Positions 1-14,811 of a stretch of DNA of 64,000 bases are shown here, one piece after another. The stretch covers positions 32,940 through 96,939 of the forward strand of contig CAZMSQ010000007.1 in NCBI GenBank assembly GCA_964569025.1, read 5' to 3'. Under the pieces are notes generated by a model. That model saw only the letters and a list, made by a program, of their open reading frames with translations. It was not told the DNA's origin and ran no database searches. Every line of letters starts with the position of its first letter. Position 1 is the first letter of the stretch. The position numbers and the translations under genes are program-made. The DNA is from an uncultured Saprospiraceae bacterium. GTDB taxonomy: Bacteria; Bacteroidota; Bacteroidia; Chitinophagales; Saprospiraceae.

Positions 1-189
1 CTTGTTGCGGCAGGCTGTGCACTCCTGCTTCGTGCTGAATGGATAACCGGAAGTCTGCCAACGTACTACTTTGGAACGACACTACTCCTTGGTGGGGTCT
101 GGGTGAATGGAAACCTCCTTCCGCTGATTCGTCAATGGGTCATTCCGGGAGCATTTGATACCGAAACGCTGAGAAACGAAAATTCGTGA
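1..189 (+). CDS. 3' end of an upstream CDS (partial, hydrophobic C-terminus ...LLGGVWVNGNLLPLIRQWVIPGAFDTETLRNENS*); product unknown
   Basis: Frame-1 reading is open from base 1 to TGA at 187-189. The stop overlaps the downstream ATG (TGATG). No recognisable motif. Confidence 0.3.
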   Translation, partial: LVAAGCALLLRAEWITGSLPTYYFGTTLLLGGVWVNGNLLPLIRQWVIPGAFDTETLRNENS

Positions 190-461
190 TGCAAACTGTG
201 CATTTTACATCTGCCCTCAAGCGGTTTTTTCCTGATATTGAACCACAACACGTCGAAGGCCAGACCGTCGCAGAAGTGCTGGATAGGCTTGAAACCCAAT
301 ATCCCGGACTCAAATCATATCTCGTTACGGAAAATGGTGCGCTTCGTAAGCACATCAACATTTTTGTAGACGGCGACTTGATTTCAGACCGAGATACGCT
401 GACTGATCAGTTAGGCCAGAGTCAGGATATTCTCATTTTTCAAGCTCTCTCCGGAGGGTAA
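189..461 (+). CDS. MoaD/ThiS/CysO-family ubiquitin-like sulfur-carrier protein (ends ...ALSGG*)
   Basis: About 90 aa with a C-terminal Gly-Gly immediately before the stop, typical of MoaD/ThiS thiocarboxylate carriers. ATG at 189 (ORF track starts at GTG 186). Stop abuts the next gene. Confidence 0.65.
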   Translation: MQTVHFTSALKRFFPDIEPQHVEGQTVAEVLDRLETQYPGLKSYLVTENGALRKHINIFVDGDLISDRDTLTDQLGQSQDILIFQALSGG

Positions 462-1565
462 ATGCTATGTGCTGAAATGAACCGCAAACTTCTCGTGGCA
501 ACGTCAAAAGGTCTGGTTGTTTGGGACCGAAAAGGGCAAAAGGAATGGGTCGTCAGAGATGTCCACTTTCAGGGATTTCCAGTTTCGGTCATTTATGCAG
601 ACACCCGGCATCAAGTGTGGTGGGCTGGGGTCTCTCACCGGCACTGGGGTCAGAAATTGCATCGGTCGTTTGATGAGGGTAAGACATGGGATGAAATGCC
701 TGTGCCTGCATACCCTGACAAAGCCGAGTGGCGACCCGGAAAGGCTGCAGTCCTTAAGAAAGTGTGGACGATCAGCAGTGCAGGCCCGGATAAGCCTGAA
801 GGACTGTGGGTTGGCACAGAACCAGGAGGATTGTTTTACAGCAATGACTACGGACAATCATATACACTGGTTGAGAGTCTGTGGAATATGCCGGGCCGTA
901 TGGACCCAACCCAATGGTTTGGGGCAGGGCGCGATTTGCCGTTTATCCATTCCGTGGTAGTTGATCCGGCTGACAGCGATCATGTGTATATCGCGGTGAG
1001 CTGCGCTGGAATCTTCGAAACCACCGATGGCGGAGCAACGTGGGCAGCGAAGAATAAAGGACTCATCGCAGCCTATCTTCCGGACCCGCATGCTGAACAG
1101 GGCCATGACCCACATCTGCTGCTGGCTTGTACCTCCCACCCAAACGTGCTTTGGCAGCAAAACCACTGTGGGGTCTTCCGGACAGAAAATGGAGGGCAGC
1201 ACTGGTCGGATGTGTCAGATCCCAGAGGGTATGTGCATTATGGGTTTGCGCTCGCAGTAGATGAAAGTGATCCGCTCTCAGCCTGGGTGATTCCTGCAAT
1301 GAGCGATGATCAGCGCGTTCCGCCAAATCTGGCACTCCGGGTCTGCCGGACCAGAGATGGCGGAAAAACCTGGCAATCGCTTACCTCCGGATTGCCCGGA
1401 GAATGCTGTTTTGACATTGTCTTTCGACATGCTTTGGCTCGGCAGGGCTCATGCATGGCCTTCGGGTCAACCACCGGGAATCTGTTTTTCTCAGATAATG
1501 ACGGAGACTCATGGACGTGCCTGAGCCATGTGTTGGGCAGAGTCGAAACCGTTACTTTTGCTTGA
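462..1565 (+). CDS. BNR/Asp-box repeat beta-propeller protein (sialidase-like fold; function unknown)
   Basis: Six S-x-D-x-G-x-T-W-like Asp-box motifs: SFDEGKTW, SNDYGQSY, TTDGGATW, TENGGQHW, TRDGGKTW, SDNDGDSW. The ATG sits immediately after the MoaD-like stop, so the two are probably coupled. Confidence 0.65.
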   Translation: MLCAEMNRKLLVATSKGLVVWDRKGQKEWVVRDVHFQGFPVSVIYADTRHQVWWAGVSHRHWGQKLHRSFDEGKTWDEMPVPAYPDKAEWRPGKAAVLKKVWTISSAGPDKPEGLWVGTEPGGLFYSNDYGQSYTLVESLWNMPGRMDPTQWFGAGRDLPFIHSVVVDPADSDHVYIAVSCAGIFETTDGGATWAAKNKGLIAAYLPDPHAEQGHDPHLLLACTSHPNVLWQQNHCGVFRTENGGQHWSDVSDPRGYVHYGFALAVDESDPLSAWVIPAMSDDQRVPPNLALRVCRTRDGGKTWQSLTSGLPGECCFDIVFRHALARQGSCMAFGSTTGNLFFSDNDGDSWTCLSHVLGRVETVTFA

Positions 1566-1640
1566 AAAATTCTATTTTTAGAAAATAAATTCTAATTTCG
1601 AAATCTATTTTATTCATTTACCTTCTTAAATCTACACACC

Positions 1641-2510
1641 ATGATACCTGCTGCTTTTGACTACGCCGCCCCTGGGACGCTGGAGGAAGCCTTCGCGTTG
1701 CTGGAGGAGTACGGCGATGAAGCCAAGATTCTGGCAGGTGGCCACAGCCTGATTCCAATGATGAAGCTGCGATTTGCAGAGCCCGGGCGGTTGATTGACA
1801 TCAACAACATCCCGGGGCTTTCATACATCAAGGAAGAGGATGGTTACCTGAAAATCGGGGCAATGACCAGAGAATCCGACCTTGAAAGGTCCGATCTTAT
1901 CCCGGGGAAATATCAGATTTTCCTCGATGCCAGTAAGTTGATTGCTGACCCTCAGGTGCGGAATATGGGTACGATTGGGGGCAATATTGCACATGGAGAT
2001 GCGGCAAATGACCATCCTGCAGTTATGCTGGCAATGCGGGCAGAAGTGGTCATCAGCAGTTCGGAAGGATCGCGGGTTGTGCCGATCGATGAGTTTTTCT
2101 ATGGCTTCTACATGACAGCTGTGCAACCTCACGAAATTCTGACAGAAATCAGAATTCCAATACCGGGGCAGCATACCGGCAATGCATATCACAAACTTGA
2201 GCGCAAGGTCGGCGATTATGCAACAGCTGGCGTGGCAGCACAAATCGGTATGGATGCGCAAGGGGTTTGCACCTATGCCGGAATCGGGCTCACAAATGTC
2301 AATCCGGTGCCGATGGTTGCATCTCGTTCAGAGGAACTGTTGAAAGGCAATGTACTCACTGATGATCTCATCGCACAAGCTGCTCAGTATGCATCAGAAG
2401 ATTGCAATCCTTCATCAGACCTCCGTGGTGACGAAGATTTTAAGCGCGAAATGGTCAAAGTATTGACCAAGCGCATCATCAATAAAGCCATTGAAAGGGC
2501 GAAAGGGTAA
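1641..2510 (+). CDS. coxM: Carbon-monoxide dehydrogenase medium (FAD-binding) subunit, xanthine dehydrogenase family
   Basis: N-terminus [39 protein letters not shown] is the molybdopterin-dehydrogenase FAD-binding fold. Gene order M-S-L is typical of form I CODH. AT-rich promoter-like gap upstream (1566..1640). Confidence 0.9.
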
Positions 2511-2535
2511 TTATTTCAGACTAAAATCTCATCAG

Positions 2536-3039
2536 ATGACTCAACAGATTACACTCACCGTCAATGGTGAACAACACACCGTCGAGGTCGAACCACGGAC
2601 GCTTCTGGTTCACCTCATCCGCGAACAGCTTAGCATGACCGGTACTCATATCGGCTGCGACACCTCCAGCTGCGGAGCATGCACCATTCTGCTCGATGGT
2701 AAGTCCATCAAATCCTGCACCGTATTGGCCGTTCAGGCCAATGGGAAGGAAGTGATCACCGTCGAAGGACTGGCCACAACTGAAGGGTTGCACCCCATTC
2801 AGGAGGGCTTCAAGGAAAACCACGGACTCCACTGCGGATTCTGCACTCCCGGCATGATGCTGCGGGCTGTAGAGTTGCTCGAAGACAATCCCAATCCCAC
2901 CGAGGAGGAAATCCGCTGGGGAATTTCAGGGAATCTTTGCCGCTGTACCGGATACAATAATATCGTAAAGGCGATTCAATATGCCGGCGCGAAAATGCGC
3001 GGAGAGGAAACGCCATCTACTGAACCGGAATTCGTGTAA
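2536..3039 (+). CDS. coxS: Carbon-monoxide dehydrogenase small [2Fe-2S] subunit
   Basis: Two [2Fe-2S] cysteine motifs ([10 protein letters not shown]... and CGFCTPGM... NLCRCTGY). Start reassigned to ATG 2536 ([11 protein letters not shown]); the ORF-track start at 2491 would overlap coxM. Confidence 0.9.
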
Positions 3040-3090
3040 GTTCACGAATTGGTTCTCTTTCTTTTTTCACCATTCAAATACCTGCATACT

Positions 3091-5463
3091 ATGATACAGT
3101 GTAAAACCTCCAAGGAAATCAGCGGCATGGGGCACTCCATGAAGCGGAAGGAGGACGACCGCTTCATTCAGGGCAAGGGGAATTATGTCGATGACATAAA
3201 ATTGCCCGGCATGCTCTACATGGACATCGTCAGAAGCCCGTACGCCTACGCAAAAATTAAAAATATCAATGCTGAGCCTGCCCTTCAGATCCCCGGTGTT
3301 GTAGCTGTGGTAACCGGCAAAGATCTTGAAAAGTATAACCTGCACTGGATGCCGACGCTGATGTCGGATACACAGATGGTCCTGCCGACAGATACCGTCA
3401 TGTATCAGGCTCAAGAAGTAGCCGCCGTCATCGCTACCAGTAAATATGCGGCCCGGGACGGCCGCGAGGCAGTCCAGGTAGAATACGAAACCATGAAGCC
3501 GGTTGTCGACCCGTATAAGTCGCTCGATCCGGATGCCCCGGTGCTTCGTACTGACAAGGAAGGCAAAACCGATAATCACATCTGGCATTGGGAAGTGGGT
3601 GATAGAGACAAGACAGAGAAAGTCTTTTCGGATGCTGAAGTCGTCGTGAAAGAGCAGATGCACATTCCGCGAATTCATGTTTCTTCCATTGAAACCTGTG
3701 GTTGTGTGGCTGACTATGACAAAGTCAACAATCACCTGACGATGTACATGACTACGCAGGCACCGCACGCCATTCGTACCGTCATCGCACTGGTTGCCGG
3801 TCATGTAGGACTGACAGAAGAGAAAGTCAGAGTGATTTCTCCCGACATCGGGGGTGGATTCGGAGGGAAGGTGCCGGTGTATCCTGGGTATGTGATCGCT
3901 ATTGCCGTTTCATTCCTTGTTGGAAAGCCGGTGAAGTGGATTGAGGACCGGAGCGAAAACCTTCAGGCCGATTCATTCGCCAGAGATTATCACATCACTG
4001 CTGAGATGGCCGCCACCAAGGAAGGGAAAATTCTCGGGACGCGTTTCAAAATCTTAGCAGATCACGGCTATACCGATGCATCTGCCAACCCGTCAAAGTT
4101 CCCGACCGGACTGTTTTCCATCGGTACCGGCTCCTACGATTATGATACAGCCTTCATGGAGGCCGATGCGGTATATACCAACAAGCCACCCGGAGGAGTC
4201 GCCTATCGTTGTTCTTTCCGTGTGACTGAGGCTGTGCATGCTATTGAACGAATTACAGACCGCCTTGCCCTTGAAATCGGAAAAGATCCGGCTCAGCTGC
4301 GGATGGAAAACTTTATCAAAAAAGAGGATTTCCCTTGGAAATCACCCACCGGTTGGGAGTATGACAGCGGTGATTATCACGCGGGTCTGAAGAAGGCAAT
4401 GGATGCCATTGAGTACGACAACCTGCGTGTTGAGCAGGCGGAGAAGCGCAAAAAAGGTGAATTGATGGGCATTGGAATTTCCACGTTCACCGAAATTGTT
4501 GGTGCAGGACCTTCGCGTGATTTCGATATCCTTGGTATCAAGATGTTCGACTCTGCTGAAATCAGGGTCCACCCAACAGGCAAGGCCATCGCACGGTTTG
4601 GTACAAAGTCGCAGGGACAGGGTCACGAGACAACCTATGCACAGATTATTGCCGAAGAGCTCGGCATTCCGGCTGAGCATATTCAGATTGAAGAGGGTGA
4701 CACAGATACTGCGCCCTACGGTCTGGGTACTTACGCCAGCCGGAGTACGCCCACCGCCGGAGCGGCTGCAGCAATGGCAGCCCGCAAGTTGCGTGATAAG
4801 GCCAAAAAAATTGCAGCTTACCTGCTGGAGGTCTCTGAAGATGACCTCGAATGGGAGCCCGGCAAGTTTTTTGTCAAGGGGGCACCTGAAAAGGTGAAGA
4901 CCATTCAGGAAATTGTCTTCGCTGCGTACACCAACCACCCGCTGGGCATGGAGGCAGGATTTGAAGCGACCCACTACTATGATCCTCCAAACTTGACATT
5001 CCCCTCCGGAGCTTATATCTGCGTGGTTGATATCGACAAGGAGACCTACGAAATCAAGGTGCGCCGATTCGTAGCCATCGATGACTGCGGGAATATCATT
5101 AACCCGATGATCGTACAGGGTCAGGTGCACGGCGGTCTGACACAGGGCCTCGCTCCTGCCATGTACGAAGAGCTTATTTACGATGAAGACGGCAATATCC
5201 TGAACGGAACCCTGATGGACTATCTTGTGCCGACTGCGGTCGAGTCACCTAACTGGGAAACCGGCCACACCGTGACACCGTCGCCCCACCACCCGATTGG
5301 TGCCAAAGGTGTAGGAGAATCCCCGACAGTGGGAGCTCCGCCGGCTATTGCCAATGCCATCGTTGATGCCCTTTCTCCATACGGGATTACCCACCTGGAT
5401 ATCCCGATCACGCCCTACAAAATCTGGAAGGCGCTGAAGGAAAAGGGCGTGTCTCTCGCCTGA
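3091..5463 (+). CDS. coxL: Form I aerobic carbon-monoxide dehydrogenase large (Mo-Cu, molybdopterin cytosine dinucleotide) subunit
   Basis: Xanthine dehydrogenase family molybdopterin-binding large subunit. The form-I active-site signature VAYRCSFR is encoded at 4198..4221. Start is uncertain: ATG 3091, 3127 (MGHSMKRKEDDRFIQGKGNYVDD) or 3139. Confidence 0.9.
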   Translation: MIQCKTSKEISGMGHSMKRKEDDRFIQGKGNYVDDIKLPGMLYMDIVRSPYAYAKIKNINAEPALQIPGVVAVVTGKDLEKYNLHWMPTLMSDTQMVLPTDTVMYQAQEVAAVIATSKYAARDGREAVQVEYETMKPVVDPYKSLDPDAPVLRTDKEGKTDNHIWHWEVGDRDKTEKVFSDAEVVVKEQMHIPRIHVSSIETCGCVADYDKVNNHLTMYMTTQAPHAIRTVIALVAGHVGLTEEKVRVISPDIGGGFGGKVPVYPGYVIAIAVSFLVGKPVKWIEDRSENLQADSFARDYHITAEMAATKEGKILGTRFKILADHGYTDASANPSKFPTGLFSIGTGSYDYDTAFMEADAVYTNKPPGGVAYRCSFRVTEAVHAIERITDRLALEIGKDPAQLRMENFIKKEDFPWKSPTGWEYDSGDYHAGLKKAMDAIEYDNLRVEQAEKRKKGELMGIGISTFTEIVGAGPSRDFDILGIKMFDSAEIRVHPTGKAIARFGTKSQGQGHETTYAQIIAEELGIPAEHIQIEEGDTDTAPYGLGTYASRSTPTAGAAAAMAARKLRDKAKKIAAYLLEVSEDDLEWEPGKFFVKGAPEKVKTIQEIVFAAYTNHPLGMEAGFEATHYYDPPNLTFPSGAYICVVDIDKETYEIKVRRFVAIDDCGNIINPMIVQGQVHGGLTQGLAPAMYEELIYDEDGNILNGTLMDYLVPTAVESPNWETGHTVTPSPHHPIGAKGVGESPTVGAPPAIANAIVDALSPYGITHLDIPITPYKIWKALKEKGVSLA

Positions 5464-5480
5464 TCAAATTGCACAAAACC

Positions 5481-5526
5481 GGGAGGGAGCTGTTCGGTAT
5501 CGCCGAATCTCCCTCCCACATTTTCT
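5481..5526 (+). terminator. GC-rich hairpin (GGGAGGGAG...CTCCCTCCC) followed by a T-rich tract, between coxL and coxG; possible intrinsic terminator or attenuator
   Basis: Inverted repeat 5481-5489 / 5509-5517 with an inner TTCGG/CCGAA pairing, followed by ACATTTTCT. Confidence 0.4.
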
Positions 5527-5573
5527 GACCCATTCGAAATGGCCCGAGGGCCATTTAAAAATTCTCGTGCGTT

Positions 5574-6083
5574 ATGAAAGCTACGTTTAATAAAGTCTTT
5601 ACAGTCAACGAACCCGTTGAAAAGGTGTGGGATTACCTCAGCGATCCCAAGAAAGTCGTAACCTGCGTGCCTGGGGCAACGCTTGTTGATCAGATTGATG
5701 ACGATAATTACAAGGGGGAGGTAACCCTGAAGTTCGGCCCCATCAAAGCAAAATATGCCGGACAGATTACCTTTCTCGAACGTGATGGGAACGCCCATAA
5801 GATGGTGATGCAAGGCAAAGGACTCGATTCAAAAGGCAAGGGAAGTGCTGATATGCTGATGAACGGCCTGGTCGAGGAAAAGGACGGTGCCACTCAGGTG
5901 ACAGCCAGCATGGAAGTCTCTGTCACTGGTATGCTCGCCCAATTCGGATCCAGACTCATCAATGATGTCACGGATTCCGTATTCGACAAATTTATCCAAA
6001 ACTTTAAGGATAAGCTCGCCGGTAAAGAAGTTGACAATACAATGACTGCCGGATCCATGCTCAAAGGGATGTTTAAGAGATAA
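5574..6083 (+). CDS. coxG: CoxG-like carbon monoxide dehydrogenase subunit G (SRPBCC ligand-binding fold)
   Basis: N-terminus MKATFNKVFTVNEPVEKVWDYLSDPKKVVTCVPGA matches the CoxG family. Position in the cox cluster supports the call. Confidence 0.8.
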   Translation: MKATFNKVFTVNEPVEKVWDYLSDPKKVVTCVPGATLVDQIDDDNYKGEVTLKFGPIKAKYAGQITFLERDGNAHKMVMQGKGLDSKGKGSADMLMNGLVEEKDGATQVTASMEVSVTGMLAQFGSRLINDVTDSVFDKFIQNFKDKLAGKEVDNTMTAGSMLKGMFKR

Positions 6084-6199
6084 CTGATCTTCCGCCTGAC
6101 ACTTCTGCCGAAACTATCACAGCAAAACTTTCTTTGCAAATAAGTAAGCTCGTGGGGGTGTCTGGCGGAGATGTTTGCTCTTTAGAATTAAACAGTCAC

Positions 6200-7090
6200 A
6201 TGGATTATCTGAACGATACGTTACAACTGACAGAGGGTTTTGACCGCCAGAAATATCTGGTGGACGATGAGCTCGCAACCATTCTGTTTCTGATGATGAA
6301 GTTGCAGAAGCCCCTTCTGCTTGAGGGAAATCCTGGGGTTGGGAAAACAGAAGTTGCAAACGTTCTGGCTGGTTTTCTGGATACACCCCTGATCCGCCTC
6401 CAATGTTATGAGGGGCTTGATGTGCACTCTGCCGTGTATGAGTGGAATTACCAGAAGCAACTCCTTTCAATTAAAATTCAGGAGGGCATCGACCGGTCTG
6501 AAGCAGATAAGGAAGCGCATATTTTTGGAGAAGACTTCTTGCTGAAAAGGCCACTTCTGCAAGCAATAACCGCGGCCACCAAGGCACCGGTTCTGTTGAT
6601 TGATGAAGTAGATCGCGCCGACGAAGAGTTTGAGGCCTTTCTGCTTGAGCTGCTCTCTGCATTTCAAATCAGCATCCCAGAAATGGGTACCATCAAGGCC
6701 ATTCACAAACCATTTGTCGTACTCACCTCCAACCGGACCAGAGAGTTGAGTGACGCCCTGAAACGGAGGTGCCTGTATCATTGGGTGAATTATCCGGATC
6801 AGGAACGGGAAATCCGTATTGTGAGCAAGCACCTTCCGACAATTGATGCTCAGCTTGCAGAGACCTTGGTAAAAGTGGTAGGCGTGCTCCGCTCACGCAA
6901 GTTGAACAAGGCGCCGGGCATTGCTGAAACACTCGATTGGGCTTCGGGGCTGCTCGCCCTTGGATTTGAAAACCTTACAGAAGAAAGCATGTCCAAAACG
7001 CTCGGCTGCGTGCTCAAGTCAGCAGATGACCTAGAACGGATTAAAGCGGAAGGCCTTGGCGTTTTGCTCGCTGATATTCCAGTTTCCTGA
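6200..7090 (+). CDS. coxD: MoxR-like AAA+ ATPase CoxD (maturation of the CODH Mo-Cu centre)
   Basis: Walker A LLEGNPGVGKTEVA and a MoxR-type AAA core. Start placed at ATG 6200 (about 296 aa, the usual CoxD length); the ORF track begins at 6134. Confidence 0.8.
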   Translation: MDYLNDTLQLTEGFDRQKYLVDDELATILFLMMKLQKPLLLEGNPGVGKTEVANVLAGFLDTPLIRLQCYEGLDVHSAVYEWNYQKQLLSIKIQEGIDRSEADKEAHIFGEDFLLKRPLLQAITAATKAPVLLIDEVDRADEEFEAFLLELLSAFQISIPEMGTIKAIHKPFVVLTSNRTRELSDALKRRCLYHWVNYPDQEREIRIVSKHLPTIDAQLAETLVKVVGVLRSRKLNKAPGIAETLDWASGLLALGFENLTEESMSKTLGCVLKSADDLERIKAEGLGVLLADIPVS

Positions 7091-7095
7091 TTCCC

Positions 7096-8241
7096 ATGCC
7101 GGAGCACCACCATTTTACAAACTATGGATCACTGAAAGAGGCACTCATTGCCTTTGGTCAGTTGGCACGTGATAACGGCCTGAAGGTGGGCGTGCAGGAA
7201 ACTCTGGATGCCCTCATTGCTGCGCGGGAAGGGGTGATTATTGACCTGCGTGCCATGAAGTTTGCGCTTAAGGCCCTGTATTGTTGTAGCGAGGAAGACA
7301 GTGATGTCTTTGATGATCTCTTTGATTGGTTCTGGAATAAACCCAGAAATGCCGTGAAGAGCCACATTACCATGAAAAACCGGTCAAATCTGGTCAAGCG
7401 CTCAGCTGCATCGGTGGTCATGCTTGGCACAGGAAAGCAAAAAAACGGCCAGGAAGAGGAGTCAAAAAATACATCAGGCGCCAACGCAGTTGAACGCCTG
7501 CGAAAAACAGATTTCGCCAGTCTATCGGAAATCGACAGCCAATGGCTCGAGGAAATCGCCATGAAACTCTGGAAGCAGATGAGCCTGCGCCTCAAACGCA
7601 AACTGCGCTCGTCACCTGGCCGTGGGCAACTCGACCTGCGGCGTACAATCCGTCAGTGCATTGCTCACGGAGGTGACCCCATTGACTTATTCATAAAAAC
7701 CCGCAAGCCAAAACGCCAGAGGCTGATTGTCCTCCTTGATGTCAGTGGTTCAATGGACAAGTACAGTTTTTTTCTTCTGCGGTTCCTTTGCGCACTGAGC
7801 GCCCATTTTGAGCGCATCGAGGCCTTTTTATTCAGCACTCACCTCGTCCGTATCTCCCCCTGGCTAAATGCCCGCAATCTGGATGCGACGTTTCGCGAAC
7901 TTTCAGCCAGGGCTGACAATTGGTCAAGCGGTACCCGCATCGGAGAGTGCTTCCGCTCATTCAATGAAGAATATGCGAAGCGAATCCTAAACGGTCACTC
8001 GACAGTCATTATCTTGTCCGATGGTCTTGACACAGGATCGCCTGATTTGCTGGCCTCAGAGCTCAAGCGAATCAAGTTGCGCACCCGTCAGTTGCTGTGG
8101 CTCAACCCTCTGAAGGGGATGTCCGGATATCAGCCTGTGCAACAAGGTATGAGTGCAGCCTTGCCGCAGGTCGATGTGTTTGAGTCCGCACACAATCTTG
8201 ACAGCATTCTCGAACTGGAAAATTTCTTGCTGAATGTTTAA
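7096..8241 (+). CDS. coxE: CoxE, von Willebrand factor A domain protein
   Basis: VWA MIDAS motif LLDVSGSM. Lies directly after coxD with a 5-bp gap. Confidence 0.8.
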   Translation: MPEHHHFTNYGSLKEALIAFGQLARDNGLKVGVQETLDALIAAREGVIIDLRAMKFALKALYCCSEEDSDVFDDLFDWFWNKPRNAVKSHITMKNRSNLVKRSAASVVMLGTGKQKNGQEEESKNTSGANAVERLRKTDFASLSEIDSQWLEEIAMKLWKQMSLRLKRKLRSSPGRGQLDLRRTIRQCIAHGGDPIDLFIKTRKPKRQRLIVLLDVSGSMDKYSFFLLRFLCALSAHFERIEAFLFSTHLVRISPWLNARNLDATFRELSARADNWSSGTRIGECFRSFNEEYAKRILNGHSTVIILSDGLDTGSPDLLASELKRIKLRTRQLLWLNPLKGMSGYQPVQQGMSAALPQVDVFESAHNLDSILELENFLLNV

Positions 8242-9217
8242 TGAATTTCTCAAAAAAGTCCAGTCTCTTCACCAACAGCGTGTCCCCTTTGCCATGGCCT
8301 TCGTTGTGAACCGCCAGGTTCCATCATCCGGGAAGCCCGGAGATAAGGCAGTTATCGAGCAGGATGGCACAATCACCGGCTGGATTGGCGGAGGGTGCAC
8401 ACGGGGGATTGTCCTCAAAGAAGCTGCAGATGCCATCCGTGACGGAAAACCACGGATGCTCCGAATTAGCCCTGATCAGGATACCTCACCAAATCCAGGA
8501 GTGATGGATTATACAATGACCTGCCACTCTGGTGGCACCGTAGAACTCTACATTGATCCCGTCCTGCCAAGGCCGGAAATCCTCATTTTCGGCCGGTCGC
8601 ATGTTGCCCGTTCGCTCTCGAGGCTGGCCAAAGCGATGGACTACCACGTCACCGTGGCGTGCAAGGGAGCCGACTCAGTGCATTTTCCGGATGCCGACGA
8701 GTTGCGGGAAGCCCCCGTCGAGGCCCAATCTGCCCGGTCAAATACCTTTGCTGTGGTTTGTACCCAGGGTGAAGATGATGAAACTCATTTGATGCAGGCA
8801 ATCAGGAGTGGGGCAGGTTATGTTGCTTTTGTAGCCAGTCGCCGAAAGGCAAATGCTATTTTTCAGACGCTACGAAGTTTTGATGTCTCATTCGATGAGC
8901 TGCGTGAGATTCATACCCCGGCGGGTCTTGACATCAATGCAAAGCTTCCCGAAGAGGTCGCCGTCAGCATACTTGCACAGATTGTGTCCCATATCAGGAA
9001 TGAGAGTATTCAGGATTCTGCTGAGAAAAAGAGTGCCCATGAGCCAGCTGAAAACTCGGCATACTTCGTGAATCCAGTATGTCAGGTGCCTGTCGAGAAA
9101 AAGACTGCAAAATATGTTGTCCAATTTCAGGAAAGAGATTATTACTTTTGTTGTGACGGTTGCAAAGTTGCCTTTGAGGCTGATCCTGAAAAATATGCCT
9201 TGCCTGAGCCGGTATGA
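8234..9217 (+). CDS. coxF: XdhC/CoxF/CoxI-family maturation factor with a fused C-terminal YHS/TRASH metal-binding domain
   Basis: XdhC_CoxI N-terminal region (GWIGGGCTRGIVLKEAADAIRDGKPRMLRI). XdhC Rossmann-like C-domain. Extra C-terminal segment NPVCQVPVEKKTAKYVVQFQERDYYFCCDGCKVAFEADPEKYA matches the YHS consensus. Overlaps coxE by 8 nt. Confidence 0.8.
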   Translation: MFNEFLKKVQSLHQQRVPFAMAFVVNRQVPSSGKPGDKAVIEQDGTITGWIGGGCTRGIVLKEAADAIRDGKPRMLRISPDQDTSPNPGVMDYTMTCHSGGTVELYIDPVLPRPEILIFGRSHVARSLSRLAKAMDYHVTVACKGADSVHFPDADELREAPVEAQSARSNTFAVVCTQGEDDETHLMQAIRSGAGYVAFVASRRKANAIFQTLRSFDVSFDELREIHTPAGLDINAKLPEEVAVSILAQIVSHIRNESIQDSAEKKSAHEPAENSAYFVNPVCQVPVEKKTAKYVVQFQERDYYFCCDGCKVAFEADPEKYALPEPV

Positions 9218-9828
9218 TATGCGCCATTCTTCTCGCAGCAGGCACTTCTTCGCGGATGGGGTCATCCAACAAGCTTTTGCTTGATGTTGGCAACGGTCAG
9301 CCTCTGGTTCGGACAATGGCCGAGCAGTTGGCGGGAGCGCCATTTGACGAGGTGGTGGTAGTAACTGGCTTTGAGAGTGGGGATGTAAAATGTGCCTTGG
9401 AAGGGCTTCCGGTTCGGATTATCGAAAATCCCGCCTATGAATCCGGAATGACAACTTCCATTATTGCCGGTCTTAGAGCAATTGCACCGGACGCGCATTT
9501 TTTGGTGGGCCTGTCAGATATGCCATTGCTGACTGCCAAACATTACAAATTGCTGCTCGCAGAGTTTGAAGCGGCATTAATCGATACCGCCCACCCAATT
9601 GTAAAACCGTCACTGAACGGAGTCCCGGGTAATCCGGCAATCTTCCATGCAGTCTATCGAGAAGAGGTGCTCTCACTGACTGATCTCCATGCCGGATGTA
9701 AACCCGTTTTGCAGCATCATGCAGACAGTGTGATTCACCCAAAGGGACTTCCGGATGTGTTTTTTCTGGACATGGACCGTCCGGAAGAGTATCAGGAAAT
9801 GAGAATGCGGGTGAACCGCGAGGGATAA
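9214..9828 (+). CDS. mocA: MobA-like NTP transferase, probable molybdenum cofactor cytidylyltransferase (MocA-like)
   Basis: N-terminus ICAILLAAGTSSRMG is the nucleotidyltransferase P-loop of the MobA/MocA family. About 200 aa. Start overlaps the coxF stop (ATGA). Confidence 0.7.
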   Translation: MICAILLAAGTSSRMGSSNKLLLDVGNGQPLVRTMAEQLAGAPFDEVVVVTGFESGDVKCALEGLPVRIIENPAYESGMTTSIIAGLRAIAPDAHFLVGLSDMPLLTAKHYKLLLAEFEAALIDTAHPIVKPSLNGVPGNPAIFHAVYREEVLSLTDLHAGCKPVLQHHADSVIHPKGLPDVFFLDMDRPEEYQEMRMRVNREG

Positions 9829-9840
9829 TGCTTCGAAGAC

Positions 9841-10491
9841 ATGAAGCCAACAAAAAAACGGATACTTCTTGCTGCGAAGGACTGCTTCGCGACCAAAGGC
9901 GTTGCAGCAACAAGGCTTCAGGATATTGCCGAACTCGCAGGTATGAGTATCGGTAATATGGTTTACCACTTCCGTAATCAGGTTGAGATGCTGGAAGTAA
10001 TTTACACTAGCTTCCAACAGCGACAAGAAGAACTCCTACAGGATATTTGCCTAAGCCCGGTTTTTTCTAATATCGATGAGTATCTCCAGAATGCTTTTCA
10101 GCTCCATCAGGAATTTTTGTTTTTCCCCCTTCACACCCCGGAGGTGCTCAGTGCGTCGCCCCGAATTTCCTCTGAATGGCGTGAACATCTCCGGTGGAAG
10201 GACCTGCAGCTTGAGTTGATGTTGCGCTTCAATCAGGCCAGAGGCGCTTTAAGTTGGGATGAGGAAACATATCCTGTCGGTGATTTGGCAGTTTTATGGA
10301 GGCGGACAATCGACGGTTGGCCCATGCATCGGGTGGTTGAGCAAAAAAACCTCGATGATTTTTTGGCTTTTCGTAAGAGTGCATGGTCAGTGCTCCTCTC
10401 CCTGATCACACCTGAAGCCCGTCCTGAATACCTAAGGCTTCACTTTACTTCAGCGCCCCAAGTACAGAACACCGTAATTGATGAAGAATGA
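9841..10491 (+). CDS. TetR/AcrR family transcriptional regulator
   Basis: N-terminal HTH KKRILLAAKDCFATKGVAATRLQDIAELAGMSIGNMVYHFRNQ. Its stop overlaps the start of the next gene (ATGA). Confidence 0.85.
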   Translation: MKPTKKRILLAAKDCFATKGVAATRLQDIAELAGMSIGNMVYHFRNQVEMLEVIYTSFQQRQEELLQDICLSPVFSNIDEYLQNAFQLHQEFLFFPLHTPEVLSASPRISSEWREHLRWKDLQLELMLRFNQARGALSWDEETYPVGDLAVLWRRTIDGWPMHRVVEQKNLDDFLAFRKSAWSVLLSLITPEARPEYLRLHFTSAPQVQNTVIDEE

Positions 10492-11963
10492 GCGAGGCGC
10501 TGCTTGAAAATATCGTTGCGAAGCGCGTTGTGCTTGAAAAAGAGCTTGGGATCGACCTATACATTGACAGGAACGATATTGTACAGCGGGCATCTTGTTC
10601 TGTGACTCATCATCAAGGCGAAAGAGGAATTCTTGTCGGTAGAAATCCGCGTGAGATTCCGTACGTGGCTTCCCATTTGTTTGGATACTCCGGAGGTTCT
10701 CATCAGCAAGCCGCGACCATGGCTCTTGAGCATGCATGGGGTGCAAAGGTGCCCAAGAATGCGCGACTGCTCAGAGCCATCGGACAAGCTGCAGAAATTA
10801 TCCAGAGCTCTGTCAGGTGGATTTACACAGCATTTGGGCCGGGCTTGGCCCACCCTGCATTTTCAGGGCTTCAAGATTCAGAATATATCCGGGACCATTT
10901 TTTAGCGTTCAAAGGCACTTCTTTCCGCAGGGGAATCCTCGGCGCCACGTTCCCCATGTCGGTATATGCAGCAATTGCCGGACAATGGCCGCAGGCCCGG
11001 TTTGCCTGCCCCGGAGGCATCGGAACGATACCTGATGCAGCGGCCCTTGCCAGGGTTTCCGGCCTCCTGAGTCGGTTTCGTACCGAGTGGCTGGAAGGGG
11101 TTCTATTACATACCTCTGTAGATGAGTTTCTCGACATTCGTACGTCGGACCAACTCTTTAATTGGATAGATTCTGCCGGGACTCACCCCAAAAGCGATTT
11201 GGCTGCCATGCTGAGTGGTGCCTTGGAAAGAGGGTACCTCAACTTAGGAGACCACTCAGCGCCAACCCTGACGTATGGTGCATTTCATGTCAGTGATCAG
11301 GAAGAAGAATCGATTCCGGAGTTACTCTCATCCCATTCTTCCATTCCCGGGCTGTGTATCAACGGTAGTTCTGTTGATGTATTGAGCAGGGCATCCGTTC
11401 GAAGCTGTATCGAGTCGTTGGGGCAATCTCATCAAACCTGGTATCAGGGCCAACCGACAGAGGTTGGCCCGCTTGCACGCATGCTTTCCCTCCATGCTGT
11501 CCGCCCGGAAGGCAATCTGATTGGTCACATGGTATCTTGGTCAGGTAAAAATGCCTTTGCCAGAATTCTTGCGAGAATCCGCGAGATTATGGTTCTTGAA
11601 AACCGAATCAGATTCTGGCTGGCACAAATTGATCCAGATGAACCATGGAATCTGCCTGTAGAAGATAGAGATGGCTGGGGACTCGGTCTGACGGAAGCGC
11701 CGCGAGGAGCACTCGCCCATTTGGTTCGGATCAGAGATGGGAAAGTGGCGGATTATCAGATTCTGCCCCCAACTTTGCTGAACGTTTCCTCCGGATCCGG
11801 AGACTCTCCCATCGAGTCTGCCCTCAGCCAATTGGAAATCCCGAATAGAAATAGCCTCCATGAGGTTGGAATCATTGCTCGTTCTTTTGATGCCAGTGTG
11901 TCCTGTAAGGTCAGGCTGTTGAAACATCCCTCCGGAAAGGTGATCTTGACGTCAGATGAATAA
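10488..11963 (+). CDS. [NiFe]-hydrogenase large-subunit homologue with degenerate (cysteine-depleted) metal-binding motifs
   Basis: Read against E. coli HyaB by eye, the conserved blocks line up. [50 protein letters not shown] matches [56 protein letters not shown] and [23 protein letters not shown] also match. C-terminal [15 protein letters not shown] stands against LHSFDPCLACSTHVL. The L1 CxxC is replaced by FGYS and the L2 DPCxxC by DASVSC. Confidence 0.75.
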   Translation: [491 protein letters not shown]

Positions 11964-12143
11964 ACATGACAAATGGACGGCGAAAAGTGTATGAACCTTC
12001 GGTAAAATTGATTGTACTACAAATGATTGTTGTTCTATGAACGAGTATGTGATTATTTTAGAGTGCAGTGAGTCGTGCTGCTAAAGATTTAATTTCGAAG
12101 TTTTTTTCAAAAAGTCTACTTTCCCACACAGAATATCTGATTT

Positions 12144-12404
12144 ATGTGTCTTGCCATCCCCGGACGAATCAAAAGAATTGATCGATCAGATCCATTCTTG
12201 AAAAGAGCCCATGTGGCCTTCGGAACCCTTATGAAAGAGGTGTGCCTTGATATGACCCCTTTGGCTCGCGTAGGCGATTATGTCCTTGTGCATGCGGGCG
12301 TGGCAATTAACGTGGTGAATGAAGAAGAAGCGATGCGCACATTCTTATACCTTGAAGAATACGGGGGTCTTGAAGACCTCTTGCCGGAGAGAGACCAGAC
12401 CTGA
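12144..12404 (+). CDS. hypC: Hydrogenase maturation factor HypC/HupF
   Basis: Canonical N-terminus MCLAIPGRI and about 86 aa. Confidence 0.85.
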   Translation: MCLAIPGRIKRIDRSDPFLKRAHVAFGTLMKEVCLDMTPLARVGDYVLVHAGVAINVVNEEEAMRTFLYLEEYGGLEDLLPERDQT

Positions 12405-12407
12405 TTC

Positions 12408-13526
12408 ATGAAATTTCTCGAAGAATACAGGGACCCGCAATTGGCGGAGCAATACCTCAACCGTCTCCATTCAGTAACCACCGGAGAGTGGGTAATTATG
12501 GAATTCTGCGGGGGGCAAACCCACAGTCTTGTCAAAAACGGCCTCATTGATTTGCTTCCCGCCGGTGTAACAATGGTGCATGGTCCGGGGTGTCCAGTCT
12601 GTGTGACCCCACTCTCTATGATAGACGCAGCCATTCGCCTTGCTGAGGAAAAAGGGGTTATTTTGTGTTCATTCGGAGACATGCTGAGGGTGCCAGGCTC
12701 TTCTCAAAATTTATTGGAAGCCAAAGCAAAAGGTGCCGCAGTCCGTTTTTTTTACTCGCCTATGGAAGCTGTCGAATTGGCGCGTAAACATCCAGATCGG
12801 GAGGTCGTATTTTTTGCGGTTGGTTTTGAAACGACCGCACCTGCAAACGCCCTGTCAGTGCTTTATGCCAAACGGCTGGGTCTGAAAAACTATTCGCTCC
12901 TGACTTCTCATGTGTTGGTTCCTCCGGCTATTTCTGCGATAGTCGAAGATGAGGAGGCCTGTGTAGATGGTTTTCTCGGAGCAGGAAATGTCTGTTCGGT
13001 AATGGGACTCAAAGAGTACGAGCAATTAATCGACAGATACAATAAACCCTTGGTGGTGACAGGGTTTGAGCCCGTTGACCTCCTTCAGGGTATTCTCATG
13101 ACGGTGACACAACTTGAACGGGGGGAGTCGAAACTTGAAAACCAATACAGCCGGGTGGTGCCATATGAAGGGAACCCCGAAGCGCAGGCAGCGGTATATG
13201 AAGTCTTTGAGCGGTGTGACCGCGAGTGGAGAGGAATTGGCGTACTCCCGGGAAGTGGACTTCAGGTGACTGAAGAATATGCTGGATTTGATGCGATCAG
13301 AAAGTTTGGGCTCACGTTCAGATATGTGGCTGAGCCATCTGCCTGTATGGCAGGTGAAATTTTGAAAGGCACGAAGAAGCCAGTTGATTGCCCCCACTTC
13401 GGAACCACGTGCACGCCAGAAAACCCCCTTGGGGCTCCGATGGTTTCTTCAGAAGGGGCATGCGCCGCATACTATCACTTTCGCGCTATTTGCAGCGCTG
13501 ATTCACACCCAATACGTACCTTCTGA
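12408..13526 (+). CDS. hypD: Hydrogenase maturation factor HypD
   Basis: CGxH (EFCGGQTH), GPGCPVCV, FETT (VGFETTAPA), and a C-terminal Cys cluster plus SSEGACAAYY. Collinear with E. coli HypD along its full length. Confidence 0.9.
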   Translation: MKFLEEYRDPQLAEQYLNRLHSVTTGEWVIMEFCGGQTHSLVKNGLIDLLPAGVTMVHGPGCPVCVTPLSMIDAAIRLAEEKGVILCSFGDMLRVPGSSQNLLEAKAKGAAVRFFYSPMEAVELARKHPDREVVFFAVGFETTAPANALSVLYAKRLGLKNYSLLTSHVLVPPAISAIVEDEEACVDGFLGAGNVCSVMGLKEYEQLIDRYNKPLVVTGFEPVDLLQGILMTVTQLERGESKLENQYSRVVPYEGNPEAQAAVYEVFERCDREWRGIGVLPGSGLQVTEEYAGFDAIRKFGLTFRYVAEPSACMAGEILKGTKKPVDCPHFGTTCTPENPLGAPMVSSEGACAAYYHFRAICSADSHPIRTF

Positions 13527-14316
13527 CCACGTCAATGTGGTTTGCCGTTTCAGCTCCCGGGAATCCGGTGATGTGGCTGTTGTTCAATTCCCGTTCTGCG
13601 ATCCTTACGAACTCCGCAGAAAGAGGAAGATACGACCAGTGCCACTTTTCTTCCCGATATCCGCTTTCACGGCCGTCTCCATATGCTGTGTATGGCCTGC
13701 AGAATCCGTATTCGGAAGCGTGTGTTTCAAGCCATTGGAAGAGTTTTTGGCCCTGACCTGTTTCGAAATATGAATTGTCGAGCGCATTCAAGTCAATGTC
13801 AGTCCCCCAGTGATGGCGAGAGGTTCCTGGCATGGCACTGTATTCAAGGATGCGCAAAGCGCGTTCTTTTGGGTCAGCAATATCGAGTGCGGCATTGGTG
13901 CCGTCACTAAGTAGTCGAGCCCCCCCCCATTTGGCAGCCCAAATCGATTGCTGATATTCAAAATTCCTTGTGGCCGACAAAATACGTAGCTCATGGCCCG
14001 CCTGAGCTGCATCCCGGTGCATCCGAATGAAAGCTTCCAGCGCTTCTTTTCGTAAAAACATCCCATCGCGGGTGGCAAATTGACGGGGTATCGGGGCAAA
14101 TAAAGGGTGTTTCGCCGGTTCAAAATGGCCGCTCAGGTATGCAATGCTGGTCATCGTCGAGTCTTTTTGGCGAGTAATTGGTAGACACTCTTGCCCTTCT
14201 TTTCTCTCTTGCGTTGGCATCTGCCCTGGATCATCAACTTGCCTTTGCCCGCATGCTGCGAATGTGAAAGTTGCCATGGTAGCCGAAATTAGACAAAAGT
14301 ATCTGATATGCTTCAT
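13486..14316 (-). CDS. Peptidase M15 family (VanY-like D-Ala-D-Ala carboxypeptidase), lipoprotein
   Basis: Lipoprotein signal MKHIRYFCLISATMATFTFAAC. Zn-peptidase motif SRHHWGTDIDL. Start placed at ATG 14316. The 3' end overlaps hypD convergently by 41 nt. Confidence 0.7.
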   Translation of the reverse strand: MKHIRYFCLISATMATFTFAACGQRQVDDPGQMPTQERKEGQECLPITRQKDSTMTSIAYLSGHFEPAKHPLFAPIPRQFATRDGMFLRKEALEAFIRMHRDAAQAGHELRILSATRNFEYQQSIWAAKWGGARLLSDGTNAALDIADPKERALRILEYSAMPGTSRHHWGTDIDLNALDNSYFETGQGQKLFQWLETHASEYGFCRPYTAYGDGRESGYREEKWHWSYLPLSAEFVRIAERELNNSHITGFPGAETANHIDVVRRYVLGVNQRCK

Positions 14317-14479
14317 CAGGCCTGATGGTTTTGCTCTTGGTAAATTTCCATCCATTTTTATTCAAATTAAATGAAATGTATACTCACCTGATAAGATATG
14401 CTCAATATGCAGTTTTTCTTGCAATTCTTCACTTCGCACCGGTTGCAAGTGGTGGGCAGGGGCAATCAATGTTTAGATC

Positions 14480-14704
14480 ATGAATAGAAAAATATTACGG
14501 TTTATTGGACTTGCATCACTTGTCATAACGGCATGGATTCTTGGCAGAATTTCAGGCATCCATGGCGTACAGCAAAAAAACGCGACGGCCAACCCCATCA
14601 GAAAATCAGACTCAATTCGAGATTCCCTTGTGCTCCGGGATTTGCTCTACAAACAAAATGTGAATGACCAGGACCAGCACGTGGGGTTGGAAAACAAGGA
14701 GTAA
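14480..14704 (+). CDS. Small hypothetical protein with an N-terminal signal peptide or transmembrane segment
   Basis: ORF only. Hydrophobic N-terminus LRFIGLASLVITAWILG. No homology recognised. Confidence 0.2.
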   Translation: MNRKILRFIGLASLVITAWILGRISGIHGVQQKNATANPIRKSDSIRDSLVLRDLLYKQNVNDQDQHVGLENKE

Positions 14705-14811
14705 TGTCCAAAAAGTCCTGAGAAATGTGTATCTTTGCGTCCGCTTTTGTGGGGATGCTCCACTGAGTCATAGTCAATATCTTATTTTTTCACCTTTACG
14801 ATACTTCAATA

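Follow-up and report, generated by a model that had tools for sequence, protein, structure and literature searches.

A HypCD-linked hydrogenase large-subunit homologue without a canonical nickel site in the CO-oxidation operons of Saprospirales

The window analyzed here, a stretch of 64,000 nucleotides (nt) from an uncultured Saprospiraceae bacterium (assembly GCA_964569025.1, contig CAZMSQ010000007.1, positions 32,940 to 96,939), contains a cox gene cluster for a form I Mo-Cu carbon monoxide dehydrogenase (CODH). The cluster ends with genes for a TetR-family regulator, a 491-amino acid (aa) homologue of the large subunit of [NiFe]-hydrogenases, and the maturation proteins HypC and HypD. The hydrogenase-like protein and its family, as defined here, are referred to by the working name LSU*. 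The ATG of its gene and the TGA of the upstream TetR gene share an ATGA overlap; this overlap and the form I cox and hypCD neighbors are as described in the original prediction, which was made from the sequence of the window, with a MocA-like gene lying between coxF and the TetR gene. The remainder of the window consists of housekeeping genes. LSU* is a new branch of the hydrogenase large-subunit superfamily that is linked to HypCD, lacks the nickel site, and resides in an aerobic CO-oxidation operon and a putative hydrogenase-type TetR regulon.

In a Pfam scan, the sole match of LSU* was to PF00374 (NiFeSe_Hases; 94.9 bits, E 7e-27), with no match to PF00346 (NuoD) at E ≤ 0.01, and its scores against the NCBIfam hydrogenase equivalogs were all far below their cut-offs. 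The closest solved relative by sequence was the large subunit of Huc, the atmospheric-H2 hydrogenase (group 2a) of M. smegmatis (7UTD/7UUS, E 2.8e-50; the second-best solved hydrogenase had an E of 1e-24 to 2e-24). The AF2 model of LSU* (pLDDT 89.9, pTM 0.91) also superposed best on Huc, with 7utd_A as the top Foldseek match (TM 0.85), and the top 50 matches were hydrogenase large subunits throughout, with no NuoD-type chain among them. With the group 2a enzymes, which comprise Huc and 530-aa Bacteroidota proteins such as P0034 of Haliscomenobacter, LSU* shares the GGSH, AGQWP, EVGPLAR, and ARSFD blocks and a homologous C-terminal tail of ∼18 aa after the L2 motif. As had been proposed from the sequence, LSU* is a true homologue of [NiFe] large subunits and not a NuoD/Ehr-type protein; it is of the soluble group 1/2 type, and its descent from a Huc-type (group 2a) large subunit is very probable. 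The closeness to group 2a in sequence, structure, and tree gives ancestry, not membership, and the catalytic motifs fail. LSU* proteins are publicly annotated as 'nickel-dependent hydrogenase large subunit' or 'F420-reducing hydrogenase alpha subunit', which is misleading.

The active-site pocket was judged through alignment. In canonical enzymes (D. gigas and E. coli structures), the first Cys of the L1 motif (consensus R-x-C-G-x-C-x-x-x-H) is a terminal nickel ligand, the first Cys of the L2 motif (D-P-C-x-x-C-x-x-H) is the other, and the second Cys of each motif bridges to iron; mutagenesis of canonical enzymes has shown each of the four to be required. In the window protein, L1 (residues 63–72) reads H63-L-F65-G-Y-S68-G-G-S-H72 and L2 (residues 468–476) reads D468-A-S470-V-S-C473-K-V-R476 (DASVSCKVR). 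The replacements are C65 to F, C68 to S, C470 to S, and H476 to R, which leaves C473 as the sole survivor of the four Cys, and multiple alignments show that the metal-binding Cys are replaced and not shifted. The RxEGH motif has become V-L-E-K-E with Glu17 retained, and E403, P405, R406, H411, S466, and D468 are likewise present. The pair of L1 Cys that marks a catalytic large subunit is absent from the window protein and incomplete in the clade as a whole, and the window protein cannot form a canonical NiFe(CN)2CO site. The original prediction had read both the ligand loss and its consequence for the cofactor correctly in the window protein. As a general trait, however, the loss is less extensive, as three of the Cys, and never fewer than two, are found in relatives, and the window species is the extreme of the series. 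Even its last Cys varies among strains: of the 15 variants listed for the species, two (P0123 and P0132) have Phe at C473 (DASVSFKV), so this residue is not essential in the window lineage.

Across the clade, L1 follows the pattern [RHN]xF[GS]FCGG[SA]H and L2 the pattern DxCxxCx[VIT][NEK]. Phe takes the place of the first L1 Cys in almost all LSU* proteins examined (Tyr in one; FGYC in P0266 is another rare L1 variant), and the cleavage-site His is missing in nearly all members, the distant representative P0266 having a His at this position. The majority of members retain three Cys. P0263 and P0265 (loci L033 and L034; L1 NIFGFCGG, L2 D-A-S-x-x-C, Arg of the APRG block replaced by Lys) have Ser at the first L2 Cys and keep only two, those that bridge to iron in canonical enzymes. 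The motifs of the closest relative of the window protein, at locus L003, are HLFGFSGG and DACLSC, and the window species has the pattern FS/SC, or FS/SF in the two strain variants. At least two Cys are kept in every LSU* lineage except the window species. The RxEGH motif has turned into QxEK[ED], and the substitutions R15Q, G18K, C65F/Y, I/V67F, and L73Q and the loss of H476 are fixed or nearly so, with E17, R406, H411, S466, and D468 retained clade-wide. Judged from the alignments, the clade-fixed substitutions suggest that the nickel side of the pocket was redesigned and did not decay at random. The window protein has the family traits F65, K18, R476, and full synteny, departs from the family at Q15 (Val), F67 (Tyr), C68 (Ser), and C470 (Ser), and is the most degenerate LSU* member.

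LSU* is a family and not a singleton, which the original prediction had not recognized. In a search of 5.8 billion proteins, the window protein fell into a 99%-identical cluster of 22 variants, one member of which is annotated as coming from a Saprospiraceae metagenome-assembled genome (MAG); all 15 listed variants are 491 aa long, and ∼25 more clusters were found at 36–50% identity. A profile search of 1.84 billion representatives yielded about six LSU*-type proteins before canonical enzymes dominated; ranked in between were one canonical group 2a enzyme and two further degenerate homologues of the large subunit. Scanning one genome per GTDB species gave 17 LSU* loci, all in MAGs (Phaeodactylibacter, Lewinella/Lewinellaceae, Saprospiraceae, and unclassified Bacteroidota), and a scan of JGI metagenomes added four. 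In a neighbor-joining tree, LSU* proteins were monophyletic, with the window protein on a long branch, and their sister group was formed by the 530-aa Bacteroidota enzymes with canonical RICGICGGSH and DSCLVCTVH motifs. LSU* is a previously unnamed family restricted to MAGs of the Saprospirales. Other degenerate proteins related to group 2a large subunits are separate from this family: P0047 (locus L028), P0048, and P0267 have an intact L1 and Tyr or Ser at the second L2 Cys, P0047 adjoining a FadL/Toluene_X outer-membrane gene without a small subunit; P0268 has a degenerate L2 and an Arg-to-Cys change in the APRG block; and P0269, from a GC-rich organism, lacks the L1 Cys and has a truncated C-terminus.

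The gene order TetR-LSU*-HypC-HypD is found next to cox genes wherever the contig reaches them (the 17 GTDB loci, the metagenome loci L001–L006 and L031–L034, and the same-species contigs L029 and L030), so the orthologues in relatives have the same linkage as the window gene. On contigs that continue upstream, ThiS-BNR-coxMSL-coxG-D-E-F comes directly before the block, with the exception of one Saprospiraceae MAG (L022), in which the block lies upstream of coxMSL, ∼1 kb away, and not after coxF. As the block still stands beside coxMSL there, the cox linkage survived the rearrangement. The two-Cys members at L033 and L034 have the same TetR-LSU*-HypC(-HypD) context, with coxF visible upstream in L033. 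In several genera, the TetR and LSU* genes overlap or are 4–5 nt apart. No small subunit, protease, hypA, hypB, or hypE was found by tblastn within ±10 kb of the related LSU* loci tested. An apparent frameshift in the L003 LSU* gene proved to be a run of N in the scaffold and not a mutation.

The features of the window locus are listed in Table 1. The AYxCSFR loop, the coxMSL order, and the coxD, coxE, coxF, and coxG genes identify the enzyme as a form I Mo-Cu CODH. The cluster resembles the form I clusters of Afipia/Oligotropha and Mycobacterium in the coxMSL order, the AYRCSFR motif, CoxG, CoxD (AAA+), CoxE (VWA), and CoxF (XdhC-like). It differs from these classical clusters in the ThiS and BNR genes upstream, the fusion of CoxF to a YHS domain, and the terminal TetR-LSU*-HypC-HypD genes. 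To our knowledge, ThiS/MoaD-like and BNR genes do not belong to the known classical cox clusters. The C-terminal YHS/TRASH-type metal-binding domain of CoxF occurs in the clade and could bear on copper delivery to the Mo-Cu site. The insertion of the MocA-like gene is confined to the window species, the other loci that cover the coxF-TetR junction having no MocA gene there. The 3′ end of hypD overlaps by 41 nt (13486–13526) the 3′ end of a convergent gene for a VanY-type D-Ala-D-Ala carboxypeptidase, a neighbor that is also present in L003.

Table 1. Genes and regulatory features of the cox-LSU*-hypCD locus, numbered from the first nucleotide of the window
Feature	Position	Strand	Remarks
ThiS-like gene	186-461	+	precedes coxM in every relative whose contig reaches that far
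BNR/Ycf48-like beta-propeller gene	462-1565	+	precedes coxM in every relative whose contig reaches that far
Candidate TetR operator TTAGAAAATAAATTCTAA	1578..1595	+	palindrome, 45 nt upstream of coxM
coxM	1641-2510	+	form I Mo-Cu CO dehydrogenase; coxMSL span 1641..5463
coxS	ORF listed from 2491	+	within coxMSL 1641..5463
coxL	ORF listed from 3049; true start probably ~14-27 codons later	+	AYRCSFR at residue 385
coxG	5574-6083	+	Pfam domains
coxD (AAA+)	6134-7090	+	Pfam domains
coxE (VWA)	7096-8241	+	Pfam domains
coxF, XdhC-like with C-terminal YHS domain	8234-9217	+	Pfam domains
MocA-like molybdenum cofactor cytidylyltransferase	9214..9828	+	sits between coxF and the TetR gene
TetR-family regulator	9841..10491	+	TetR_N PF00440 and a sub-threshold PF13972 C-terminal match
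LSU* gene	10488..11963	+	491 aa; hydrogenase large-subunit derivative, very probable Huc/group 2a ancestry, uncleavable C-terminal tail kept
HypC	12144..12404	+	N-terminal Met-Cys (Cys2); His in VLVHAGVAI
HypD	12408..13526	+	PF01924, 486.8 bits

In a scan of nearly all non-overlapping open reading frames (ORFs) of at least 150 aa in the 64 kb, neither a PF01058 small subunit nor any further hyp gene was found. This was in agreement with tblastn searches of the window with the small subunit, HycI, HypA, HypB, and HypE of the Haliscomenobacter hydrogenase locus L007, which gave nothing (all E > 0.05), and with the original prediction, according to which the window encodes no small subunit. The full set of hypABCDEF and an endopeptidase is not present in the locus, which has hypC and hypD only (HypF was not searched for directly), and no kinase was found in the cox/LSU* cluster. 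A scan of positions 9000–14800 for sigma-70 promoters and terminators gave nothing above shuffled sequences, sigma-70 being the wrong promoter type for Bacteroidota.

HypC of the window keeps Cys2, and the His of its VLVHAGVAI motif lies at the position of the functional H51 of E. coli HypC. HypD keeps the CGGQTH motif with the Fe-binding Cys, in which Gln takes the place of the first His of CGGHTH, as well as GPGCPVC and GFETT, and its four C-terminal [4Fe-4S] cluster Cys align with those of T. kodakarensis HypD. The Asp of its FGDM motif aligns with D100 of T. kodakarensis HypD, the equivalent of E. coli D98, which is required for docking HypE (PMC12130793). The identity of the window HypD is 62–71% across the clade, 80% to L003, and 65% to the hydrogenase-linked HypD of L007. 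By these motifs, the HypCD scaffold looks fully competent.

Selection on the locus was estimated from Phaeodactylibacter/Lewinellaceae-type species pairs (dS 0.6–1.4). The dN/dS of LSU* was 0.08–0.16, comparable to the values for TetR (0.05–0.15) and CoxE (0.06–0.12); the others were 0.05–0.10 for HypD, 0.01–0.08 for HypC, and 0.02–0.03 for CoxL. The LSU* family is functional and under purifying selection, and a recent pseudogene was rejected for the family on these values (dN/dS ∼0.1). In the window species, three contigs of ∼99% nucleotide identity were compared, so that numbers are small and the comparisons are not independent; pooled, LSU* had 20 synonymous and 23 non-synonymous differences (pN/pS ∼0.37), and the neighboring genes had pN/pS values of 0.04 (TetR), 0.07 (HypD), and 0.09 (CoxF). 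Constraint on LSU* looks relaxed in this species, with HypCD still tightly constrained. Here the case for a recent pseudogene is only weakened, with all 15 listed variants of full length and a pN/pS of 0.37. In a contig from another strain of the same species (L025; 99% nucleotide identity), a clean 7.8-kb deletion of window positions 678–8459 (junction L025:2459/2460) takes most of the BNR gene, coxMSL, coxG, coxD, coxE, and the 5′ end of coxF and leaves TetR-LSU*-HypCD intact; it may be a real population variant or an assembly join.

The probable origin of the module is indicated by the Huc-like hydrogenase of Haliscomenobacter at L007. Its genes are ordered TetR, small subunit, large subunit, HycI protease, further genes, and HypA, with HypB-HypC-HypD-HypE on the opposite strand. 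The TetR protein at its head shares both of its Pfam domains with the window TetR (27% identity over the full length, E 1e-23), and the HypC proteins are 56–59% identical, so with HypD the identities of the maturation proteins span 56–65%. The two loci also share an 18-bp palindrome, TTAGAAA-N4-TTTCTAA. It occurs once in the window, at 1578–1595 (0.02 expected from shuffles), and when up to two mismatches were allowed, 19 matches were counted in 433 kb of loci, versus 2.1 in shuffles. The BNR-coxM gap was covered by 14 of the loci fetched at that stage, and 13 of these have a single copy 33–79 nt ahead of coxM. The later metagenome loci L031 and L032 likewise carry the palindrome ahead of coxM, and in the rearranged L022 it stands in front of the TetR gene. 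At L007 there are four copies (7798, 8884, 8907, and 20311), which lie upstream of an orf118-TetR pair, the small-subunit gene (two in tandem), and hypB. L025 has a further copy upstream of the ThiS-BNR pair, in a region outside the window. The right half-site of the palindrome overlaps a TAATTT[CT]G sequence that resembles the TAnnTTTG-like −7 box of the Bacteroidetes promoter consensus. The LSU*-HypC, coxF-TetR, and TetR-LSU* gaps contained no palindromic motif common to the loci.

A homologous TetR and the same palindrome at the L007 hydrogenase make a cut-down hydrogenase operon grafted onto a cox cluster the simplest reading of TetR-LSU*-HypC-HypD. By the same reading, this TetR lineage would act, through putative binding to the palindrome, as a repressor of hydrogenase promoters in part of the Saprospirales and of the cox promoter where LSU* is present, and the shared palindrome suggests one TetR regulon for trace-gas enzymes in the order. 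The regulator had been called the TetR of the cox cluster, and its linkage to cox stands; however, it was not originally a cox regulator, as the homologous protein and the palindrome head a hydrogenase operon at L007. LSU* itself differs from group 2a enzymes in the Phe or Tyr at the first L1 Cys, the missing cleavage-site His, the QxEK[ED] motif, the lack of a small subunit, protease, and hypA, hypB, or hypE in the locus, and the position inside a cox cluster.

We propose the following explanation, to which we assign, mechanism included, a probability of roughly 35%. An ancestral operon of the form TetR-small subunit-large subunit-protease...hypA...hypB-C-D-E would have lost the small subunit, the protease, and hypA, hypB, and hypE, as the comparison of loci suggests, and the leftover TetR-LSU*-HypC-HypD would have been fixed at the end of a form I cox cluster. 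LSU* would no longer bind nickel. That the whole family is nickel-free is likely, because the ligands used by nickel only are the first to go, the cleavage-site His is absent in nearly all members, and no hypA, hypB, or protease genes occur in the fetched flanks. In most species, the protein may still receive an iron-based group from the adjacent HypCD, held by the two or three remaining Cys, and would stay uncleaved and precursor-like. It would then act as a protein partner through which repression of the cox promoter by TetR responds to a gas or to a redox cue, CO being the obvious candidate; control of TetR-type regulators by a protein partner is known from AmtR-GlnK and DhaS-DhaQ. Taken separately, this regulatory or sensor role is tentative. 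In its most specific form, LSU* and HypCD would constitute a new gas sensor, in which a nickel-free, small-subunit-free iron carbonyl/cyanide center built by HypCD binds CO (or H2/O2) at an open site, controls TetR by contact, and switches on aerobic CO oxidation; we regard this version as speculative and rather improbable. The LSU* of the window species probably has no metal and either serves as a structural partner only or is in the process of being lost; the reduction to one polymorphic Cys together with the relaxed constraint makes a metal-based role doubtful there. The roles offered by the original prediction (a CO or H2 sensor, a scaffold, or a non-nickel metalloprotein) stay conjectural, with a metal site doubtful for the window species.

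Several points weigh against this explanation. The window protein, with one Cys or none, has a pN/pS several-fold that of TetR, HypD, and CoxF, and HypCD remains strongly constrained beside it. The adjacency of TetR was inherited from a hydrogenase operon and is therefore in itself no sign of signaling between LSU* and TetR, whose contact we infer. Cyanide ligands need HypE and HypF, and HypE is absent from all fetched loci (±10 kb, tblastn), as is HypF, for which no direct search was made. Retention of the HypE-docking Asp in HypD is a hint at a HypE encoded elsewhere, as would be expected if HypCD served another hydrogenase. Finally, L025 lacks coxMSLGDE and has the module intact, so the module can persist, at least briefly, without CODH.

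We slightly favor a regulatory role over the alternative that LSU* is an accessory or maturation factor of CODH, which we consider less probable. HypCD-loaded LSU* would then work with CoxD, CoxE, and CoxF in the assembly, stabilization, or protection of the Mo-Cu enzyme, or dock to it as an extra subunit, and would have no part in regulation. The position of the module after coxD-E-F, in the same orientation and with tight spacing, would suit such a factor, as would the persistence of the cox linkage through the L022 rearrangement and purifying selection on LSU* like that on CoxE and CoxF. However, we know of no chemistry that links an iron carbonyl/cyanide group of the HypCD type to the CuSMoO2 site, the parts of the published work on Oligotropha and Mycobacterium CODH that were consulted mention no such module, and the L025 strain keeps the module without CODH genes.

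It is somewhat less likely still that HypCD serve in the maturation of a canonical [NiFe]-hydrogenase whose genes lie at another site in the genome and that LSU* and TetR are co-regulated leftovers of minor or fading importance, with the window LSU* effectively decaying. The canonical motifs for Fe(CN)2CO assembly are all present in HypD, including the Asp that docks HypE, and this protein is equally similar to hydrogenase-linked and other cox-linked HypD; the loss of three or four Cys, the polymorphism of the last one, and the raised pN/pS would also be expected of a leftover in the window species. The family as a whole has no leftover signature, however: the three-Cys lineages combine a dN/dS of 0.08–0.16 with clade-fixed substitutions and intact ORFs in more than 20 species, and the flanking hypB and hypE were specifically lost, with hypC and hypD kept. 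A search for a second large subunit argues weakly in the same direction, as among the best 120 large-subunit homologues none but LSU* could be assigned to the LSU*-carrying contigs of 4.12 Mb and 1.87 Mb. A corresponding search for HypE homologues carries no weight either way, as the best 120 matches were all at least 72% identical and none could be assigned to LSU*-bearing contigs.

It is very unlikely that LSU* has remained a hydrogenase or senses H2 at an atypical catalytic site, either Ni-Fe with three thiolates or Fe-only. The second-sphere residues Glu17, Arg406, His411, Ser466, and Asp468 are kept and HypCD are adjacent, but the window protein has a single Cys, a small subunit, HypA/B, and a protease are all absent within 10 kb of every member tested, the clade is without the first L1 Cys and the cleavage-site His, and canonical enzymes need all four Cys. 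A Cys-less homologue of the complex I type (NuoD/Ehr/Mbx-like), which has only the loss of the metal-binding Cys in common with LSU*, is refuted by the absence of PF00346, the best match to Huc by sequence and structure, the lack of NuoD-type chains in the top 50 of Foldseek, and neighbors that are soluble cox or hyp proteins and not membrane subunits.

The regulatory reading can be set beside known systems. Group 2b sensors (HoxBC/HupUV) are group 2 large subunits employed for signaling and not for energy, and they provide a precedent for a sensor derived from a hydrogenase. In contrast to LSU*, they have four Cys and a Ni-Fe site, need a small subunit, have no C-terminal extension, and signal through a histidine kinase. 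The NuoD-type subunits of complex I and of Ehr/Mbx are, like LSU*, descendants of large subunits that took on a new role without the Ni-Fe ligands; unlike LSU*, which derives from group 2a, is apparently soluble, and always lies beside HypCD, they derive from group 4, belong to membrane complexes, match PF00346, and have no HypCD. A parallel in state may be the maturation precursor of canonical enzymes, in which the apo-large subunit receives Fe(CN)2CO from HypCD before nickel insertion and C-terminal cleavage (PMC11565642, PMC12134894). LSU* resembles this precursor in the retained C-terminal extension and the HypC/HypD partners, and at that stage the precursor has neither nickel nor a small subunit. 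The precursor is transient and has four Cys, whereas for LSU* the uncleaved form would be the end state, with a cofactor content that is putative. In the full-text literature, we found no description of hydrogenase-like or hypCD genes in Mo-CODH clusters nor of orphan hypCD relevant here, in line with the original prediction that no such arrangement had been described, and Saprospirales CODH clusters were not found described in any detail.

No task of HypC and HypD is known to us other than assembly of the Fe(CN)2CO half of the [NiFe] cofactor. A conserved client that is unable to hold nickel, has no electron-transfer subunit, and is encoded in a CODH operon would widen the known scope of the Hyp machinery, and if the sensor reading were true, LSU* would be the first non-hydrogenase client of Hyp proteins and the first Fe(CN)x(CO) protein with a signaling role. 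The family would be a second and independent route, beside that of NuoD/Ehr, to the repurposing of hydrogenase large subunits, and its natural 3 → 2 → 1 → 0 series of Cys offers a way of asking which ligands the iron fragment needs. The current annotation as a nickel-dependent hydrogenase would wrongly score genomes with LSU* as those of H2 oxidizers. For the Saprospirales, an abundant aquatic and wastewater group, the shared TetR and palindrome would place the two main trace-gas enzymes, Mo-Cu CODH and Huc-type hydrogenase, under linked regulation.

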